Source of the DNA: Nitrospirota bacterium
GTDB lineage: Bacteria > Nitrospirota > UBA9217
Assembly: GCA_963740085.1 (NCBI GenBank)
Contig: CAVUCU010000001.1
Span: 1,120,001-1,184,000 of the forward strand
Length of the DNA: 64,000 nt
Direction: 5' to 3'
Positions 25,376 to 57,373 of this stretch are shown here, piece by piece. The position numbers and the translations under genes are program-made. Position 1 is the stretch's first letter. Each line of letters begins with the position of its first letter. Below the pieces are notes generated by a model. That model ran no database searches. It was not told the origin of the DNA and saw only the letters and a list, made by a program, of their open reading frames with translations.

Positions 25376-25441
25376 TCCTTCCGGGAAAATAGTAAGGTCT
25401 TTTGTACACTGTATGATGGGTGCATGTCAATAATAAAAAAG

Positions 25442-26012
25442 GTTCTTCTGCCTTTTCTGTGGGTCTCTTAATTACGGGTATCGCTTTTTATTCTTCATGA
25501 ACAATCTGTTTCCCGAATGTTATCTAAGTTGGCCATTGTCCCAGGTGTGCATGGATTTTTTTGGGCAGCTCATCACTCGGCCGCGCAGCATGCCGGGAAG
25601 ATGTACAGCACCTCCACCCTGATATGCAGGACTCGCATCACTCCACCCTCGCCCTTTAAAAAAGGGCTCGGCCGTGTCTGCCTTGTCTTGTTCTGGTAAC
25701 TATGATCTGTGCTGCATTGCTCTGCGCGGCTTTCGCTCAGAGCTACCCGGCGCAGGGGAACGGCAGAACTCTTTGCCTTTCCAGAAGCCCCTGCATCCCA
25801 TGAACAGGTTCGCGCACAAGCATGCCAAGGGAGAAAAGACCGAAGTTGCCACAAAGCCAGGCAGACACACCGTGCTCTTGCGATAACGCGGGTGCAGGCG
25901 GCCAATCTAAGGGAAGTGCTGCGACACTCGAAAGGCTTATTATCAATACCGGCAATCATGCCCTGCGCGGAGCTGTGAACTGGGGTGCAGAATAAAATAG
26001 GACCGCGACATG
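25442..26012. ncRNA. Copy 1 of a repeated non-coding structured element (candidate ncRNA or MITE)
   Basis: Colinear and highly similar to about 55223-55855; compensatory base changes in stems; no credible ORF. Confidence 0.6.
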
Positions 26013-28678: not shown

Positions 28679-29822
28679 ATGGAGCATGGTTTTAGGTCAT
28701 ACGGTGTTTTTTTCATGGAGTCTTCCTTGTTCTTTGTCAGGTCCGCGCGGCAGAAGCCTTTCATTCCGGAGGGGCTGCGAGAGTGCAAGGAATGTCATGA
28801 AGACAACGAAGGGCTCTTTACGCGGATCCGATGCAAGCTCCACCTGTCTTCGTTGCCATCAGGCGCCGCAGGGTACGCGGGAGCCCATTGGCCATTATAT
28901 TGCAACCAATAGCGTCGATCTTGGGGCCGGTATGCCGCCCTCACAATTAACTCCTGGTGGAGACTTCGGCTATTTAAAGAAGAGCTACTTCTGGAAAACC
29001 GCGGGAACGACAGGGCGCAGCCCTGGTGAACGGCACGGCCATAACATTGTTGCGGACGACTATGGGTATATCGCAGACAGTAAGATGTTGAGCAAACCGG
29101 GAGAAGTCTATCCCAATGGCCGGCTTTCCTGTATCAGCTGCCATGATCCGCACGGAAAAATTTCGAACGGTGTATATCGCATGCTGGGGGGAATTGGCTA
29201 TAAAACAAGTTTAGTGCCGGGCATGGTTTTCAATGCCGATGCACCTGTCGCTGTTGCTCCACACGACTACAACAGGTCTGAGGCCGTTACGGACACGAGG
29301 GTCGCGTATGGCAAGGGGATGTCCGAATGGTGCTCAAATTGCCATACGAACGGATGTTCAGGCGCGTATGGACATCCTGTCTGCAACGGTGCCCGGTGCA
29401 CGACTGAGATCATCTCCAATTACGGCGCCTATGTGAAATCAGGTGATATCAATGGAAGAAGGGACGCTTCATATACTTCACTCGTTCCATTCGAAGAAGG
29501 GACCGACGACAGGTCGATGCTCGCACAGCATGCCCGATTCGACGGCAGCTATGCATCGGGTCCCGGGTATGGTTCCAATGTTATGTGCCTCACCTGTCAC
29601 AGGGCTCATGCATCATCCTGGGACCATATGACCCGATGGAACATGACTGCGACCTTTATCGTTTATAAAGGCGTTTACCCGGGAACCGATAATAGTTCAT
29701 CTGAGGAGTATGCTCAGGGTCGCACGGCTGCCGAGACGCAAAGAGCCTTCTATGACAGACCGCATACGCAGTTTGCTAGCTACCAGAGGGGTCTTTGCAA
29801 CAAGTGTCATATAAGAGACTGA
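28679..29822 (+). CDS. OmcS-family hexaheme cytochrome, paralog 4 (N-terminus broken by frameshifts)
   Basis: TPGGDFG, GERHGHNIVA, CISCHDPHG, TRVAYG.GMSEWC, CLTCHRAHAS and QR.LCNKCH. AEAFHSGGAA and ECKECH are readable in shifted frames near 28750-28800. Confidence 0.85.
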
Positions 29823-36308: not shown

Positions 36309-36324
36309 TGCAATCAATATGCCA
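36309..36324 (-). promoter_or_regulatory. Sigma-54 -24/-12 promoter upstream of the PPIase-cytochrome genes
   Basis: Minus strand TGGCATATTGATTGCA matches TGGC-N7-TTGCA. Confidence 0.7.
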
Positions 36325-50817: not shown

Positions 50818-52106
50818 CTATGGATATACCCCTACATGGCATTTGTTGCAAAGTGTATCCTGCGAGGGAGCAAATTTCGTCGCCGGCATGTCATAATACG
50901 CCCGCAAGGCCTCTGCCTCCGTGCGCCCCTGCCCGTAGGGCTGTTCAGGCTGCCCTTCCTGGGAATACGATCCATTGTTCTCGATAAAGCTTGTTTCAGC
51001 ATTCCATCTCATGATGCCGTCCCACCCCGACGCGTGCGCCCGGTGGCAGGTAAGGCACGTCACCTGCGCCGTTGTGTCGGGACCAGTGAGCCAGGAATCA
51101 TCGCTTTTTGCATGCGCCTTGAGGGTCGCGTAGTCCGTGATTCCCTCCTCGAAGGGAACGAGCGAAAGATAGGACGTATTCACCAATCCCGTGAGATCGC
51201 CGCTTTTAATATATGCATTATAGTTGGCCGCCTTGATTGCGCCGAGGTTGGCGGCGTTGCCTGTCGGGTGAAGCAGGTTCGTCTTCCCGGGCCAGGTTGT
51301 CGTATGCATGTCCGGGTGGCAGTTCCTGCACCACTCCGACATGCCTGCACCGTAGGCCACGCGGGTCTGCGTTGTTGCTTCCGACCTGTTGTATGTGTCC
51401 GGCGCGACGGCGGCGGGAGGATCGTTCACAAAGGCAAAACCGCCGGTCAAGGATTTCGGCAGATAGCCCTTTCCGCCCAGCATCCGGTACACACCCACCG
51501 CCTTGTTGGCTTCAGGATCGGGACTGGACGCGTAGGAGCCCGAGCCGATAATGGGGCTCCAGGTCGTGGATATGGATCCGTCGAAATTCCTCCGGTATTT
51601 TCCATGGGGGTCGTGACAGCTTATGCAGGACAAGCCATCCGAGGGATAGGTCCCGCCCGGGGCAGCGGAATAGGTGCTGTCGCTATCGTACAGGAAGTCG
51701 GCTGCCACGATATTGTGTCCATGCCTTTCTCCAAGGCTGGATATGGGCGGCAGCCCGGGACCCGGGACCCAGGAGAAGGTCTTTTTGAGCCATCCGAAAT
51801 CTCCGCCCGGCGTGAGCTGTTTGGGAGGCATGCCCTGCGGGAGCTCGCTGAACGGCGTGCTTACATGGTAGTCCGTCGGACCGATGTCGCCCGGCTGCTG
51901 ATGGCAATACAGGCAGGTTGAACTGGCATCCTGTTCCCGCAGGAGAGAAGGCCCGCTGATCGAGAGAATGTCGGTACCGTGTATCGAGTGACAAGCAACG
52001 CACGTACCGACGCCGCCGTCGTGGAAAGCCGCTGAACCGCTTTCCAGCCGATGATAATAAGGGCTGTTGTCAACAGACCCCTGATGATGGTCGTCAGTAT
52101 TTTCAT
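50818..52106 (-). CDS. OmcS-family hexaheme cytochrome, paralog 3 (frameshift in signal peptide near 52040)
   Basis: In-frame FHDGGVGTCVACHSIH, CLYCH, TPGGDFGW, CISCHDPHGKYRR, WCRNCH, CLTCHRAHASG and LCNKCH; six CxxCH motifs. Confidence 0.9.
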
Positions 52107-52211
52107 CTCATCACAGCGTAAATGCGGCATTCCAGGTGAATGCCGATACATCTGAATCCAGGGACATTACTCAGTTAAAAATCAAATTCGACTCAACATG
52201 AAAAAAAATTT

Positions 52212-52428: not shown

Positions 52429-52461
52429 AAAAAGAAGGGCTGGATTTCTCCAGCCCTTCTT
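52429..52461 (-). terminator. Intrinsic terminator after omcS paralog 2
   Basis: aagaagggctgga-tttc-tccagcccttctt hairpin with a minus-strand U tract. Confidence 0.75.
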
Positions 52462-52494
52462 AGGTACATACATTATGCTGCGACTAGGTGGATA

Positions 52495-53731
52495 TTAGTC
52501 TTTTGCGTGGCACTTGTTGCAAAGCGAACGCTGGTAGCTGGCATACTTTGTTTCGGGCTGGTTGTTGTAAGCAGCCGATGTTTCTGCCGTGGTGCGGCCC
52601 ATTGCATATTTTGCAGCTGTTGGCGATCGTGCTCGTTGAATCGGTGCCCGGCCATACGCCGTCAGCAGCGATGAACTCGCCTTCGTTCTGCCACCTGGTC
52701 ATGTGCGCGAAGCCGGTTGCATGCGCCCTGTGGCACGAAAGGCACATAACTCTGGATGACGTTGCAGCCTGTGCATTGACGGTGTTGGCTGCTGTCTGGA
52801 GGGCTGCCATGTCGGACGTATTGTCTGTCTGGAAAGGAACGATCGTGTCGAAGCCGGAAGCGCCCGTCAGACCGCTGCCCAGATAGGCGTTGTAGTTTGC
52901 TGCAACTGCTGCGCTGAAGCCCTGGTTTACCGGGTGGGTCAGCTTGGTGCTGGTGGCGCTGTGCATGTCAGGATGGCAGGTTGCGCACCAGTCGGAGATG
53001 CCGGCGCCATAGGCCTCGGCCGTCTGCGAGACTGCCTCTGTCCTGTTGTAGGTGGATGCAACGAAGCGTTGGAATGTCGCGGTGAAGGTCTTGCCGCCTG
53101 AACCGGCCGTGGAGCCCGGTCCACGAAGGAGACGGAACACGCCGACTGCCTGGCCTGCTGCCGGGAGCGTGCTGTTGGTGTAGGAGCCGGAGCCGATGAT
53201 CGGGGCGCCCGTGGTTGCCATGGCGCCAGTGGAAAGCCTTCTCAGTTTGCCATGGTTGTCATGGCAGCTGTTGCAGGAAAGCTGGGTTGCATCCATGTCG
53301 CCGCCCGGGGCGGTCGTGTTCTGCGCATCAGCAACGTAACCGGGGAGGGCGACTGCTACGACGTTGTGGCCATGTCTCTCGCCAAGTTCTGTTGAAGAGG
53401 AGCCGGACCGAGGGGACCAGGTATAGGTCTTGAGGAGCCAGCCGAAGTCGCCGCCCGGGGTCATCTGAAGCGGGGGTACGCCGGCGGTAACTGTCGGGGT
53501 GAGGATATGATAGCTGCCTGCTGATGGTGAGCCGTGGCAGGAAGCGTTCGCGCAGGTGGAGGTGATGTCCCCGGCGATAAGGAGAGCTGAGGCGCTCTGA
53601 CCGTCATGGATGTCGTGGCAGCCCATGCACTCTGCAACGCCGCCGGAATGGAACGCATAGCTTGCGGTGCTGAGGCCGATTATTACGGCAAAAGCAGCTA
53701 CAAGGATAAGACTAAATTTAACGATTTTCAT
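52495..53731 (-). CDS. omcS: OmcS-like nanowire cytochrome, paralog 2 (frameshift near 52615)
   Basis: AFHSGGVAECMGCHDIH, LQMTPGGDFGW and CLSCHRAHA; the shifted frame ends ASYQRSLCNKCHAKD*; GGAGG RBS before 53731. Confidence 0.88.
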
Positions 53732-53750: not shown

Positions 53751-53830
53751 CTCCGGCAGACCAGCCATCCCGCTTCCGGGATCTGTGACTTTGTGCCCCC
53801 ATCTTGCAATGGGTTTACTCTTTTCGGAGG
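53751..53830 (-). ncRNA. GEMM-I riboswitch, A20 (cGAMP / GEMM-Ib) type
   Basis: Minus strand cctccgaaaaGAGTAAACCCATT-GCAA-GATGGG-GGCACAAAGTCACAGATCCC..GGGATGGCTGGTCTGCCGGAG, in the omcS 5' UTR. Confidence 0.85.
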
Positions 53831-53857
53831 ATCGATTGTGCCGGCAATGCCGACATA

Positions 53858-53917
53858 TTTTACTTCTCACTTTTTACTTCTTACTTCTTACTTTTTACTT
53901 CTTACTTCTTACTTACT
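53858..53917. repeat. (TTACTTC)n heptamer tract
   Basis: About 8 degenerate ttacttc/ttacttt units. Confidence 0.85.
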
Positions 53918-53977
53918 GTCTGCTTTTTAACGACCTCGGTAGTTCATCACCTCCTTTATTTATCGTCCAGCTTGTTT

Positions 53978-54937
53978 TCAGTTGTAACTGATCCTGAAAA
54001 CGCTGACCCCTTGATTTTTTGCCTGGTTCACGAAGATCTTGTCGTTCATGACTTCCACTTGCTGCGGGGCGAAAAGGCTGCCCCGGTCTGTGCCGCGGTG
54101 TCCGAACTGCATCTGGAAATTGAAGTCCTTGTCATAGACCATGATCACGCTTTTGAGAATATCGGCCACGTAGATAAATCCCTTGTCATCCGATGCAATT
54201 CCTCCCACGACATTGAACTTTCCATCGAGGCTGCCCGGGGTGCCGAAGGATGCCACCTTGTGGTCGAGGGACATTCTGAAGGCCGCGAACAGCGTAGGCA
54301 CCGTGAAGAGCATGCTGCCGTCCCGGTCCACGTTGAAGCCGACCATTTCGTTCTTGGAATCGGGCTTGTCTTCCTTGACGAGCAAGGCCCCGACGTCATA
54401 GCCGTCTACGAATGTTCCGCTGGAATCCGTGACCACGATCTTTCTTGCCTGAAAGTCGGCAAGGTAGATGTTCCCGTTCTTGTAGACAAGACGATTCGGC
54501 CGAAGCTGTGAAAACTCCTGAGGAAGCCCCTTGAGTTCCACGGTATCCTTCAGTTCTCCGCGGTAATTACAGCGCAGCACTGAAATGATATTCCCCCTGG
54601 CATCCCATTTGGAGGAGAGCACGAGGATGTTGCCGTCCTTTTCAGCGGCAACATCGATTATGTTGCCGAGTGCCTGGTCGTTGCCGAAGCGGTAGATCTC
54701 CATGCCTACGGAATTGAATATGCTGACAGTGCCCTGGTTGATGACGTATATTTCTCCGCGCTCCTGGTCGCTGGACAGCCCCGGCCAGGTGTAGGGGATC
54801 CTGCCGGTAAAGTCGGAGAAGGTGTAGAGATAGGAAGCGTTTATTGCTGCAGTTGCATTTGTTGAGCAGAAGAGCAACAGCAGGATCGCTGTTACCGTTG
54901 CGAGGGATGTCATATTTTTTAAATGAAGGTCTTTCAT
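53978..54937 (-). CDS. Exported NHL-repeat protein directly upstream of omcS
   Basis: Signal peptide; IYLAD, GKFNVVGGIASD..G.IYVAD and FG.RG...G.LFAP repeats; GAGG RBS before 54937. Confidence 0.85.
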   Translation of the reverse strand: MKDLHLKNMTSLATVTAILLLLFCSTNATAAINASYLYTFSDFTGRIPYTWPGLSSDQERGEIYVINQGTVSIFNSVGMEIYRFGNDQALGNIIDVAAEKDGNILVLSSKWDARGNIISVLRCNYRGELKDTVELKGLPQEFSQLRPNRLVYKNGNIYLADFQARKIVVTDSSGTFVDGYDVGALLVKEDKPDSKNEMVGFNVDRDGSMLFTVPTLFAAFRMSLDHKVASFGTPGSLDGKFNVVGGIASDDKGFIYVADILKSVIMVYDKDFNFQMQFGHRGTDRGSLFAPQQVEVMNDKIFVNQAKNQGVSVFRISYN

Positions 54938-54965
54938 TTTTTCCTCTGCATTTGACTGCTTATAG

Positions 54966-54981
54966 TGCAATGGCTATGCCA
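54966..54981 (-). promoter_or_regulatory. Sigma-54 -24/-12 promoter for the NHL-omcS operon
   Basis: Minus strand TGGCATAGCCATTGCA; IHF-like tttcaatatgtta just upstream. Confidence 0.7.
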
Positions 54982-55222
54982 TGAGATTAACCACATATAA
55001 CATATTGAAAGTGTTATGTTTATCTTTTGGAATGGGAATTTAAACATACGTGTATCTGGTCAAATGACCATTCTCCTATAGTCATATTCCCATAAGGACT
55101 GCTTAAAACAGGGTTTCTATCGTTTGGGGCAAAACAGGGGAAATTATTGCGGTAAAGAGGGGGGAATAAGCCGCAAGAGGCCGATCCGGGAACGTGCGGG
55201 GTTGGGTAAAGCTTTTAAAATT

Positions 55223-55905
55223 GGATCTTCTGACTTTTATGTGGGTCGTTTAACAGCAAGTACCGCTATTTATTCAACATCAATAGTCTGTTTTCTGAAT
55301 ATCATCTCAGTTGGCACTGTCCCACTTGTGCATCGATTTTTTTGGGCAGCTCATCGCTCGGCCGCGCAGCATGCAGGGATATATACTGTACTCAGCCCTG
55401 ATATGCAGGTCTCGCATCACTCCACCCTCACCCTTTGAAAAAGGGTTCGGCCGTGTCTGCCTTGTCTTGTTCTTGCAACTACGATCTGTGCAGCATTGCT
55501 CTGCGCATCTTTCGTTCAGAGCTACCCGGCGCAGGGGAGAGGCAGAATTTTAAAGGCTACCCCACTAAGTGCAGAATTAACCTCAACGGGATTTGGGGAG
55601 ATACTCATATCTTTGCCGTTCCAGAAGCCCCTGCATCCCATGAACAGGTTCGCGCACAAGCCATGGTAAGGTAGAAAAGAACGATGTTGCCACAAAGCCA
55701 GGCAGACGCACCGTGCTCTTGCGATAACGCGGGTGCAGGCGGCCAATCTAAGGGAAGCGCTGCGATGCTCGAAAAAGCTCGTTATCAGTACCGGCAATCA
55801 TGCCCTGCGCGGAGCTGTGAACTGGGGTGCAGAAAAAAAATAGGATCGTGATATGTGCCGAGTTAAGAACAGATAAAAACGACCCACACAAAACCCGGAA
55901 GACCC
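55223..55905. mobile_element. Copy 2 of the repeated structured non-coding element, bounded by imperfect 29-bp terminal inverted repeats (MITE-like)
   Basis: ggatcttctgacttttatgtgggtcgttt ... aaacgacccacacaaaacccggaagaccc (24/29 complementary); core homologous to 25442-26012. Confidence 0.6.
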
Positions 55906-55933
55906 TTAAAATTTTGCTATCCCTGGAAGAAGC

Positions 55934-55967
55934 AAAAAAAAGGAGGACCGGCGAATGCCGGCCCTCC
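55934..55967 (-). terminator. Intrinsic terminator after omcS paralog 1
   Basis: ggaggaccggc-gaat-gccggccctcc hairpin with a minus-strand U8 tract. Confidence 0.75.
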
Positions 55968-55990
55968 CGAGAATGCAGCTTCAAAATATA

Positions 55991-57271
55991 TTAATCCTTC
56001 GCGTGGCACTTATTGCAAAGCGACCTCTGATAAGAGGCGTAATGCATTGTCGTGCCGTTGTAGGCCGCGGTCGTCTCTGCAACGGTGCGGCCCATCGCGT
56101 ACTTAGCTGCGTTGGCGATCGTGCTTGGGGAGTCAGTGCCCGGCCATACGCCGTCAGCAGCGATGAACTCTCCATCATTGTTCCATCTGGTCATGTGCGC
56201 CCAGCCAGAGGCGTGCGCCCGGTGGCAGGAAAGGCACATGACCCTGTCGACCGTGCCGGCCGGACCGTTGCGATTCGAGCCGTCACTGTTTGCAAGGGCC
56301 TTGAGGGCGGTGATGCTTCTCAAGTTGTCCGTCTGGAAGGGGACGATGGAATCGTACGAGTTGGCCGCTGTCACTCCCGTTGTAAGTCCGCTGCCCAGAT
56401 AGGAGTTGTAGGTGGCGACCTCGGCGGCGCTCAGGCCCTGGTTCACCGGGTGCGTCATCTTCGTGCTGCTGGCCGTATGCATGTCTGGATGGCAGGTTGC
56501 GCACCATTCCGATATGCCGTATCCGTAGGCCACGCGGGTGGGAGCAGCTGTTGTCTCCGCCCTGTTGTAGGTGTCCGGGGCGATTGCGTTAAAAACCACG
56601 GTAAAGGTCTTGCCGCCTGATCCGGCTGTAGAACCCGGACCGCGAAGCAGGCGATAGGAGCCGACTGCCTGGCCCGCTACCGGGTCAGTGCTTGACTTGT
56701 AGGAACCGGAAGCGATGATCGGCGCTCCTTTTACTCCCCAGGTCGGGTTCGTTATTAACCCGATTCTTCTCAGCTTGCCGTGGTTGTCATGGCAGCTGTT
56801 GCACCCAAGGAGAGATGCATTCATGTCTCCGCCAGGAGCAGTCGAGTTCTGTCCATCTGCAACGAAACCGGGAAGGTCCATTGCCACGATGTTGTGGCCA
56901 TGTCTCTCGCCCAGTTCTGTCGAAGAGGAACCCGACCGCGGAGACCACGTATAGGTCTTCAAGAGCCAGCCGAAGTCACCGCCCGGGGTCATCTGAAGCG
57001 GGGGTACGCCTGCGGTGACTGTCGGGGTGAGAATGTGATAGCTTCCTGCCGACGGATTGCCGTGGCAGGATGCGTTGGCGCAGGTGGAGCTTATGTCGCC
57101 GGCGATCAGGAGCGCTGAGGGGCTTTGGCCGTCGTGAATGTTGTGGCAGCCCATGCACTCCGCTACACCGCCGGAATGGAACGCGTAGCTCGTAGCACTG
57201 AGCCCAACGATAAGCAGGGCTGCAGCCAGGGCAACGAGACTACCTTTGACTATTTTATTGACCATCTTCAT
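55991..57271 (-). CDS. omcS: OmcS-like nanowire cytochrome, paralog 1 (intact)
   Basis: AFHSGGVAECMGCHNIH...LQMTPGGDFGW...TRVAYG...CLSCHRAHASG...YQRSLCNKCHAKD; five CxxCH and one CX4CH. Confidence 0.93.
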   Translation of the reverse strand: MKMVNKIVKGSLVALAAALLIVGLSATSYAFHSGGVAECMGCHNIHDGQSPSALLIAGDISSTCANASCHGNPSAGSYHILTPTVTAGVPPLQMTPGGDFGWLLKTYTWSPRSGSSSTELGERHGHNIVAMDLPGFVADGQNSTAPGGDMNASLLGCNSCHDNHGKLRRIGLITNPTWGVKGAPIIASGSYKSSTDPVAGQAVGSYRLLRGPGSTAGSGGKTFTVVFNAIAPDTYNRAETTAAPTRVAYGYGISEWCATCHPDMHTASSTKMTHPVNQGLSAAEVATYNSYLGSGLTTGVTAANSYDSIVPFQTDNLRSITALKALANSDGSNRNGPAGTVDRVMCLSCHRAHASGWAHMTRWNNDGEFIAADGVWPGTDSPSTIANAAKYAMGRTVAETTAAYNGTTMHYASYQRSLCNKCHAKD

Positions 57272-57292
57272 GTACTCCTCTGGGTGATACAG

Positions 57293-57373
57293 CTCCGGTA
57301 GCCCGGCAATCCTGAGTCTCAGGACCCGATAGCTTTGTGCCCCTGCCTTGCGACAGGTTTACCCTTTCAGAGG
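57293..57373 (-). ncRNA. GEMM-I riboswitch, G20 (c-di-GMP-I) type
   Basis: Minus strand cctctgaaAGGGTAAACCTGTC-GCAA-GGCAGG-GGCACAAAGCTATCGGGTCCTGAG..CTCAGGATTGCCGGGCTACCGGAG. Confidence 0.85.

Follow-up and report, generated by a model that had tools for sequence, protein, structure and literature searches.

Some of the closest described counterparts of the locus considered here come from Geobacter, in which GEMM-I riboswitch control of omcST, riboswitches for cGAMP (the 3',3'-linked cyclic dinucleotide of GMP and AMP) with an adenine at position 20 (A20), and Hypr GGDEF enzymes are established (PMC6456294). Our locus lies in a 64,000-nt window of a Nitrospirota contig (CAVUCU010000001.1), the window being the whole stretch of DNA analyzed, and consists of two GEMM-I riboswitches, RS1 and RS2, each preceding one of two sister genes of the OmcS cytochrome family (paralogs 1 and 2). 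Coordinates refer to the window, and all riboswitch and cytochrome features of the locus are on its minus strand. OmcS filaments serve the export of electrons from cells. We consider it probable, though well short of certain, that two GEMM-I ON switches gate the sister OmcS genes, RS1 responding to cyclic di-GMP (c-di-GMP) and RS2 belonging to the A20 class.

The resemblance to known systems is considerable. As in our locus, a GEMM-I aptamer stands ahead of OmcS-family genes in the omcS-omcT leader of G. sulfurreducens, with an NHL gene upstream; for this omcST riboswitch a response to c-di-GMP as well as to cGAMP is reported, with reference to an earlier study (PMC6456294). It acts as an ON switch of genes for extracellular electron transfer (PMC6456294), which is also the logic predicted here. 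The same module, in the order NHL gene, A20 riboswitch, OmcS-like gene and second paralog, is present in a metagenome-assembled genome (MAG) of Geobacteraceae (locus L046). In Geobacter, however, one switch serves the omcST operon, whereas in the Nitrospirota locus each sister gene has a switch of its own and the two switches differ at position 20. Moreover, the Geobacter switches described in PMC6456294 use terminators, whereas RS1 and RS2 are predicted to act on the Shine-Dalgarno sequence. Another relevant case is Desulfobacca acetoxidans, in which in-line probing of neighboring c-di-GMP-I aptamers indicated that G forms favor c-di-GMP, while an A variant gains cGAMP affinity and loses little affinity for c-di-GMP (Sherlock et al. 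2022, PMC9481103). There, as here, similar neighboring GEMM-I aptamers of one locus differ by G or A at a ligand contact; unlike RS1 and RS2, the Desulfobacca aptamers are terminator-type rather than translational and are paired with adenosylcobalamin switches, not placed on paralogous cytochrome genes. OmcS genes have been reported in Thermodesulfovibrionia MAGs (PMC8478452), and a literature search for Nitrospirota in connection with riboswitches, c-di-GMP and cytochromes yielded a single review. Set against the known systems, the locus therefore extends them to a new phylum, with a platform predicted to be translational.

Folds of the two leaders and predicted pairing with the Shine-Dalgarno sequences

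An earlier note on this DNA, made from the letters alone, described full GEMM-I folds in both 5' untranslated regions, and covariance models bear this out. Scanning the whole window against Rfam (cmscan at gathering score; cut-offs 35 for RF01051 and 59 for RF03167) gave exactly two matches, both of the GEMM-I clan: RS1 at 57293-57372 and RS2 at 53752-53829. RS2 was matched by RF01051 with 56.3 bits. For RS1 the best model was RF03167, the c-di-GMP-I-GGC variant, at 60.2 bits (1.2 above its cut-off), with RF01051 scoring 60.4 bits at the same place. This marginal preference for the variant model speaks against the favored reading of RS1. The variant assignment was nevertheless rejected, as the two scores are equal and the junction after P1a does not follow the variant consensus. 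The RF03167 model has GCGAA there; RS1 is treated as plain GEMM-I because its junction reads ACAAA, the ordinary c-di-GMP-I form. The P1b loops of both aptamers read GCAA, of the GNRA type.

The fold is conserved in an alignment of 21 distinct homologous leaders, to which all leader counts below refer. Across these, 96% of cells are paired, compared with 89.8% in shuffled alignments, none of 500 of which reached the observed value; when the partners were slid by 1-3 columns, only 38-54% of cells were paired. The P1 helix is 97.1% paired and the inner helices covary well, both sides changing in four of six P1b pairs and in four of ten P2 pairs. By our reading of the Rfam consensus, the counterparts of the pocket bases A47 and C92 lie in the AAA junction and at the C that precedes the 3' strand of P1, and none of the 21 sequences varies there.

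The second line of evidence concerns the expression platform. The 5' P1 strand of each leader had been noted as complementary to the Shine-Dalgarno sequence of its own gene; this complementarity is exact, and it is conserved in the 21 leaders. In both leaders the anti-Shine-Dalgarno strand comprises the 5' P1 strand with 2-3 upstream bases. Thus, in RS1 the strand UUCCUCUG (57375-57368) matches CAGAGGAG (57282-57275), the Shine-Dalgarno region 3 nt 5' of the ATG at 57271, and in RS2 the strand AUCCUCC (53832-53826) matches GGAGGAU (53741-53735), which lies 5' of the ATG at 53731. The helix is 95.8% paired across the leaders and, judged against the slid controls, the complementarity is more than chance. 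It shows two double changes, from A-U to G-C in the homologous leader L076 and from C-G to U-A in RS1. That the helix is largely invariant tells against the proposed switch; part of this invariance is attributable to the constraint on the Shine-Dalgarno sequence itself.

The minimum free energy (MFE) folds computed with ViennaRNA in the ligand-free state hold the anti-Shine-Dalgarno helix in both leaders (-42.6 kcal/mol for RS1 and -39.8 kcal/mol for RS2), and the Shine-Dalgarno sequence has an unpaired probability of only 0.03 (the mean over the region) in RS1 and 0.012 in RS2. P1 is only 5 bp long and the competing helix 7-8 bp. Folds in which P1 is forced are weaker than the MFE folds by 10.9 (RS1) and 8.8 (RS2) kcal/mol, a cost that could plausibly be paid by tight ligand binding. 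The aptamers end only 16-22 nt from the ATG, and the terminator scan found no terminator between aptamer and ATG in either leader. In the proposed mechanism, the 5' P1 strand and its 2-3 upstream bases would pair with the Shine-Dalgarno sequence when ligand is lacking, hiding the ribosome site; ligand would lock P1 into the aptamer and release it. Since ligand-bound P1 would free the ribosome site, both elements would be ON switches. Translational ON control of both genes, as proposed in the earlier note, is well supported by the predicted folds, the design of the anti-Shine-Dalgarno strand and the conservation of the helix, from which we infer the ON logic.

Position 20 and its ligands

The two aptamers differ at position 11 of the RF01051 model, an unpaired base that stands directly 5' of the opening P1a pair. 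RS1 has G there (57363, GAAAG-G-GUAAACC), and RS2 has A (53819, GAAAAG-A-GUAAACC). This model position was mapped to G20 of the Vc2 aptamer from the Rfam consensus and Keller 2018 (PMC6140456), and the Rfam alignment upholds the G and A read earlier. In Vc2, one ligand guanine pairs through its Hoogsteen edge with G20, and an A at this position is characteristic of cGAMP riboswitches (PMC6140456). Wild-type Vc2 bound cGAMP at only 10 uM, and its G20A mutant is bispecific, with a Kd of 120 nM for cGAMP and 53 nM for c-di-GMP; Cbe 1-2 is another bispecific A20 aptamer (PMC6140456). The GEMM-Ib cGAMP switches Gs1761 and Gm0970 have A20 in the same fold as RS2; their selectivity was measured (about 1200-fold in favor of cGAMP for Gs1761, as quoted in PMC6456294). 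Even Gs1761 still binds c-di-GMP, through a protonated adenine, and the stability of P1 may shape the ligand selectivity of these aptamers (PMC6140456). The idea of retuning by a single base is itself already published.

Applied to our locus, these data do predict c-di-GMP for the G20 of RS1, which would control the stand-alone paralog 1 with its own terminator. RS2 is predicted to belong to the A20 class with gained 3',3'-cGAMP affinity, its sequence being compatible with both selective and dual reading; it would act within a conserved sigma-54 NHL-riboswitch-OmcS unit, and we lean toward the view that it reads both dinucleotides. Because published A20 aptamers span the range from cGAMP-selective to bispecific (PMC6140456, PMC9481103), the opposite ligand specificity that the earlier note ascribed to RS1 and RS2 is unproven, and of its ligand rule the G20 half stands. 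The underlying observation (two aptamers, the G/A difference and the anti-Shine-Dalgarno strands) is confirmed, and the two-signal interpretation is partly supported.

It should be noted that the ligands of both switches are predictions from primary structure, and another possibility is that both answer c-di-GMP in the cell. In that case A20 of RS2 would be tolerated in a pocket that accepts both ligands and would shift the threshold, and the paralogs would differ in dose-response rather than in the signal read. We regard this as possible, if tentative. The c-di-GMP affinities quoted above for Vc2 G20A, for Gs1761 and for the A variant of Desulfobacca are in keeping with it, and so is the distribution of the base among relatives. 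Position 20 is G in 11 and A in 10 of the leaders, and the RS2 aptamer is 90.8% identical to its nearest relative, that of locus L033, which has G20, yet only 71.9% identical to RS1. On the protein tree (24 rows, with three too-short OmcS rows left out and paralog 2 trimmed to 368 residues), paralogs 1 and 2 are sisters with 100/100 support, and the A-type switches are spread over no fewer than four distinct parts of the tree. Given this scatter and the likeness of RS2 to L033, the base appears to flip often between close relatives; the A/G alternation would fit equally a bispecific pocket that drifts almost neutrally and a genuine change of tuning. This alternation counts against the favored reading. 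Against c-di-GMP as the only ligand stand a further A20 riboswitch elsewhere in the genome, the fact that a genome of the same genus retains A20 in its switch linked to NHL, and the enzymes considered in the next section. That A20 occurs naturally is evident from the 10 of 21 homologues that have it, the same-genus genome G004 among them. With two sister genes under switches that are unlike at the base reading the ligand, the locus is a natural and clean test bed for whether this one base retunes the signal in vivo.

By sequence reading, the position-20 equivalent is G in four and A in two of the six GEMM-I matches in the whole genome. The A20 switch other than RS2 (L006, G000 C7:19714-19790 (-)) is terminator-type and stands ahead of a gene for a lipoprotein-like protein of 498 aa that contains CSSFTYSGWGTC repeats. 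Among the relatives, base calls were made for 41 of the 78 over-cut-off GEMM-I matches of nine genomes (80 matches listed). In a genome of another genus (G023), the OmcS switches likewise comprise one of each type, A and G, and lie on two short contigs. Identical riboswitches are found in a same-genus genome and a Nitrospirota MAG. A third GEMM-I subtype was also seen in relatives, CUCAGAGCAAACC ... GACGCAGAGC, which has, besides A20, a G within the AAA junction where the intercalating adenine sits (for example G004:C12:950536-950624, G018:C9:281781-281869 and L177).

Candidate cGAMP synthases

Whether RS2 could meet cGAMP in the cell depends on a synthase, and the earlier note proposed a genome search for a Hypr GGDEF enzyme of the GacA type. 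The specificity residue of GacA is Ser348, which follows the base-binding Asn at a distance of 9 residues (PMC6456294). The genome, which is 98.5% complete, has 23 GGDEF loci (24 matches, two being halves of one domain). The residue equivalent to GacA-348 is Asp in most of them and Ser in two proteins; of five loci that fall outside the motif pattern, four read D by eye and the fifth ends before the position. GacA itself is a Rec-GGDEF protein, and no such enzyme with Ser348 was found among the 23 loci; likewise, a search for CD-NTases, made with the SMODS family only, had no match in the genome. The search thus had a divided outcome: the GacA type was not found among these loci, and two atypical Ser348 GGDEF proteins are present.

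The first of these, at G000 C4:646152-647531, is a 4HB/HAMP-GGDDF protein. It shares all three features of GSU1937, namely HAMP, Ser348 and GGDDF (Tan et al. 2022, PMC8835794), in a like arrangement of transmembrane/4HB, HAMP and GGDDF. Among 30 matched loci in relatives, 21 have Ser with GGDD[F/Y]; Asp stands in place of Ser in five distant loci and Asn in a single locus, and three do not match the pattern. Full-length homologues with the same motifs, 33-37% identical, are present in Geobacteraceae MAGs. The second is a GAF-GGDEF protein (G000 C1:729518-730657) with GGEEF and a 25-residue spacer, and Ser, GGEEF and the spacer length are all kept in 25 of 25 family orthologues (L209-L233). Its architecture is that of M. 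xanthus MxGacB (bioRxiv 10.1101/600031). The pairing of Ser with GGEEF is reported as inactive and as absent from natural enzymes, Ser/Thr-348 occurring only with GGDE[F/Y] (PMC6456294); in our protein the spacer is 2 residues longer. The GAF-GGEEF family is, accordingly, a natural exception to that rule as published.

Both families are candidate cGAMP synthases on the evidence of their motifs, in a phylum for which the literature searched showed no cGAMP link. Their existence, and the GSU1937 feature set of one of them, argue against c-di-GMP as the sole signal. On the other side, neither GGDDF nor GGEEF obeys the GacA rule (PMC6456294), and the failure to find a GacA-type enzyme or a SMODS CD-NTase favors c-di-GMP. 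The same applies to the lack of a co-occurrence signal between A20 switches and Ser348 GGDEF proteins across 15 genomes. This lack is explained by the fact that both enzymes are core genes of the family: each of the 24 family genomes has a GAF-GGDEF orthologue (E <= 1e-40), and 22 of them have a HAMP-GGDDF match (E <= 1e-20). Individual genomes also break the expected association, G012 and G023 having A20 switches without an orthologue of the HAMP-GGDDF protein, and G021 having the GAF enzyme without any GEMM-I.

A more far-reaching version of the favored reading, which we regard as rather doubtful, is split control: c-di-GMP would open the stand-alone paralog and 3',3'-cGAMP the paralog of the NHL operon, with cGAMP supplied by a family-wide Ser348 GGDEF and the NHL-riboswitch-OmcS module exchanged between phyla. 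If true, Hypr-cGAMP control of extracellular electron transfer would extend from Geobacter and Myxococcus to Nitrospirota, and the synthase would be either the HAMP-GGDDF protein or a GAF-GGEEF protein that breaks the published Ser348/GGDEF rule. As to the exchange, the riboswitch-linked OmcS proteins of the Geobacteraceae locus L046 and of L064, from genome G006 of the window's genus, group together with 100/100 support, which suggests transfer of the module between the phyla.

The cytochrome genes and their surroundings

Paralogs 1 and 2 are both homologues of OmcS. Paralog 1 (55991-57271) encodes an intact hexaheme cytochrome of 426 aa, of which residues 31-426 align to residues 1-407 of the OmcS filament structure PDB 6ef8 (E 2.2e-86); six heme motifs are present in it, of which the second is of the CX4CH form, and paralog 2 shares 75% identity with it. 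We take His16 to be the inter-subunit His ligand on which OmcS filament assembly depends. A His is present at the aligned position of paralog 1 (chnih vs CHTMH in the 6ef8 alignment). The earlier note set the locus against Geobacter electron transfer; OmcS-family genes do stand behind GEMM-I aptamers here, and the host is a Nitrospirota, the closest OmcS relatives being Nitrospirota MAGs (65-72% identity) rather than Geobacteraceae (only 42-47%). The second heme motif of both paralogs (CANASCH; positions 56080-57160 and 52600-53630) is CXXCH in 15 of 15 other full-length homologues examined.

Paralog 2 as assembled (52484-53731) is frameshifted near codon 370: five heme motifs are in frame, followed by an out-of-frame tail, and the sixth is lost to the +1 frame. 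There the true C-terminal part (52495-52623) contains CNKCH, ends in ...AKD and a stop codon, and is 78% identical to residues 386-426 of paralog 1; the break lies at about 52618-52622. A second frame break within 2 kb, at about 52060-52100, affects paralog 3 (50833-52044; 50833-52146 with the signal peptide), an OmcS-like gene that is more remote, at 50% identity, and lacks a riboswitch; here the signal peptide (MKILTT..., starting near 52106) is out of frame with the mature heme-binding part. Both breaks speak against the favored reading and raise the possibility that the RS2 unit is decaying, with paralogs 2 and 3 as pseudogenes, the G/A difference of no present function and only paralog 1 working. 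A broken OmcS gene behind the A20 switch of G004 (three TGA and one TAG inside the match; a 15-aa open reading frame) fits this picture. We nevertheless think it unlikely. The aptamer, anti-Shine-Dalgarno strand and Shine-Dalgarno sequence of RS2 are intact, with a compensatory change of 53808 with 53802 relative to relatives, and the remainder of paralog 2 has no stops.

Moreover, contigs from four of 22 listed environmental runs were compared, which represent relatives at 90-99% likeness, none being from the source sample (the largest share of sampled words in any run was 0.16). In three of the four runs the contigs omit one base exactly at the break, in one of two alternative places, 52618 (X2) or 52622 (X4 and X19); run X1 had no cover there. 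Because of this coincidence the break looks like a consensus or indel error, and we lean toward assembly indels rather than real decay as the origin of the frame breaks, although contigs of relatives cannot settle the frameshift of the source strain, nor its base at 53819. Contig cover in the RNA library X19 was considered as a sign of paralog 2 expression and set aside, such cover not being evidence of expression.

The presence of at least two probable indel errors nearby in the assembly also raises the question of whether A at 53819 is itself an error of sequencing or assembly, both aptamers then being G20. This is very improbable. The nearby errors are indels and not substitutions, and A occupies position 20 in 10 of the 21 riboswitches, in independent assemblies. 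As a weak hint in the same direction, 53819 is absent among the 40 best-supported contig differences (462 further), while the contigs do differ at 53802 and 53808.

The promoter claims of the earlier note proved largely wrong. Paralog 1 was held to be sigma-70-driven; four sigma-70 sites were found against 4.0 expected, none of them within 300 nt of RS1, and a perfect TTGACA at 57551-57546 was rejected as its second hexamer matches at only 3/6. Paralog 2 was held to be sigma-54-driven. The window does have a good element, TGGCATAGCCATTGCA at 54966-54981, an exact match to TGGCAY-N5-TTGCW with correct -24 GG/-12 GC spacing, and exact matches number two in the window against 0.11 expected; of 14 related loci, 13 have a like element 5' of NHL, and RpoN is encoded in the genome. 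The element precedes the NHL gene (29 nt 5' of its start codon) and not RS2, so that paralog 2 may be sigma-54-driven at most by read-through. The sole candidate at RS2, CGGCACAATCGATCCT (53843-53828), has 3 mismatches and was discarded; at up to 3 mismatches the window holds 177 matches against 252 expected, which is below chance. The second exact consensus in the window is TGGCATATTGATTGCA at 36309-36324 (-).

A search with tblastn found the order NHL, GEMM-I and OmcS, often with a second paralog, in most related loci. One riboswitch usually serves the operon in these relatives, whereas here a second riboswitch is present on a separately terminated paralog. We infer that RS2 and paralog 2 are co-transcribed with NHL. 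The sigma-54 promoter, NHL gene, GEMM-I switch of predicted translational type and OmcS gene form a conserved unit in uncultured subsurface Nitrospirota.

In the order of transcription, RS1 and paralog 1 are followed by a strong intrinsic terminator (55941-55968; 12-bp stem and T7, terminator scan), a repeat made up of two halves and some 700 bp long (55216-55911), the sigma-54-type element, the NHL-repeat protein gene (53978-54937; Pfam NHL), which keeps its place upstream of the riboswitch and OmcS in most related loci, a 7-nt tandem repeat in the spacer between the NHL stop codon and RS2 (TTACTTC, 7.9 copies, 53860-53914), RS2 and paralog 2. After paralog 2 come a hairpin with a T-run (52432-52458), a likely terminator read from the sequence and absent from the terminator scan list, and then the more distant paralog 3. 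A fourth, shorter OmcS-like gene lies at 28776-29819 (+), with an open frame of 394 aa, and matches paralog 1 in two pieces. The 700-bp repeat is non-coding and recurs in the window at 25434-26012; over 20 copies, 74-92% identical, occur in the genome, and in environmental metagenomes the repeat reaches very high depth.

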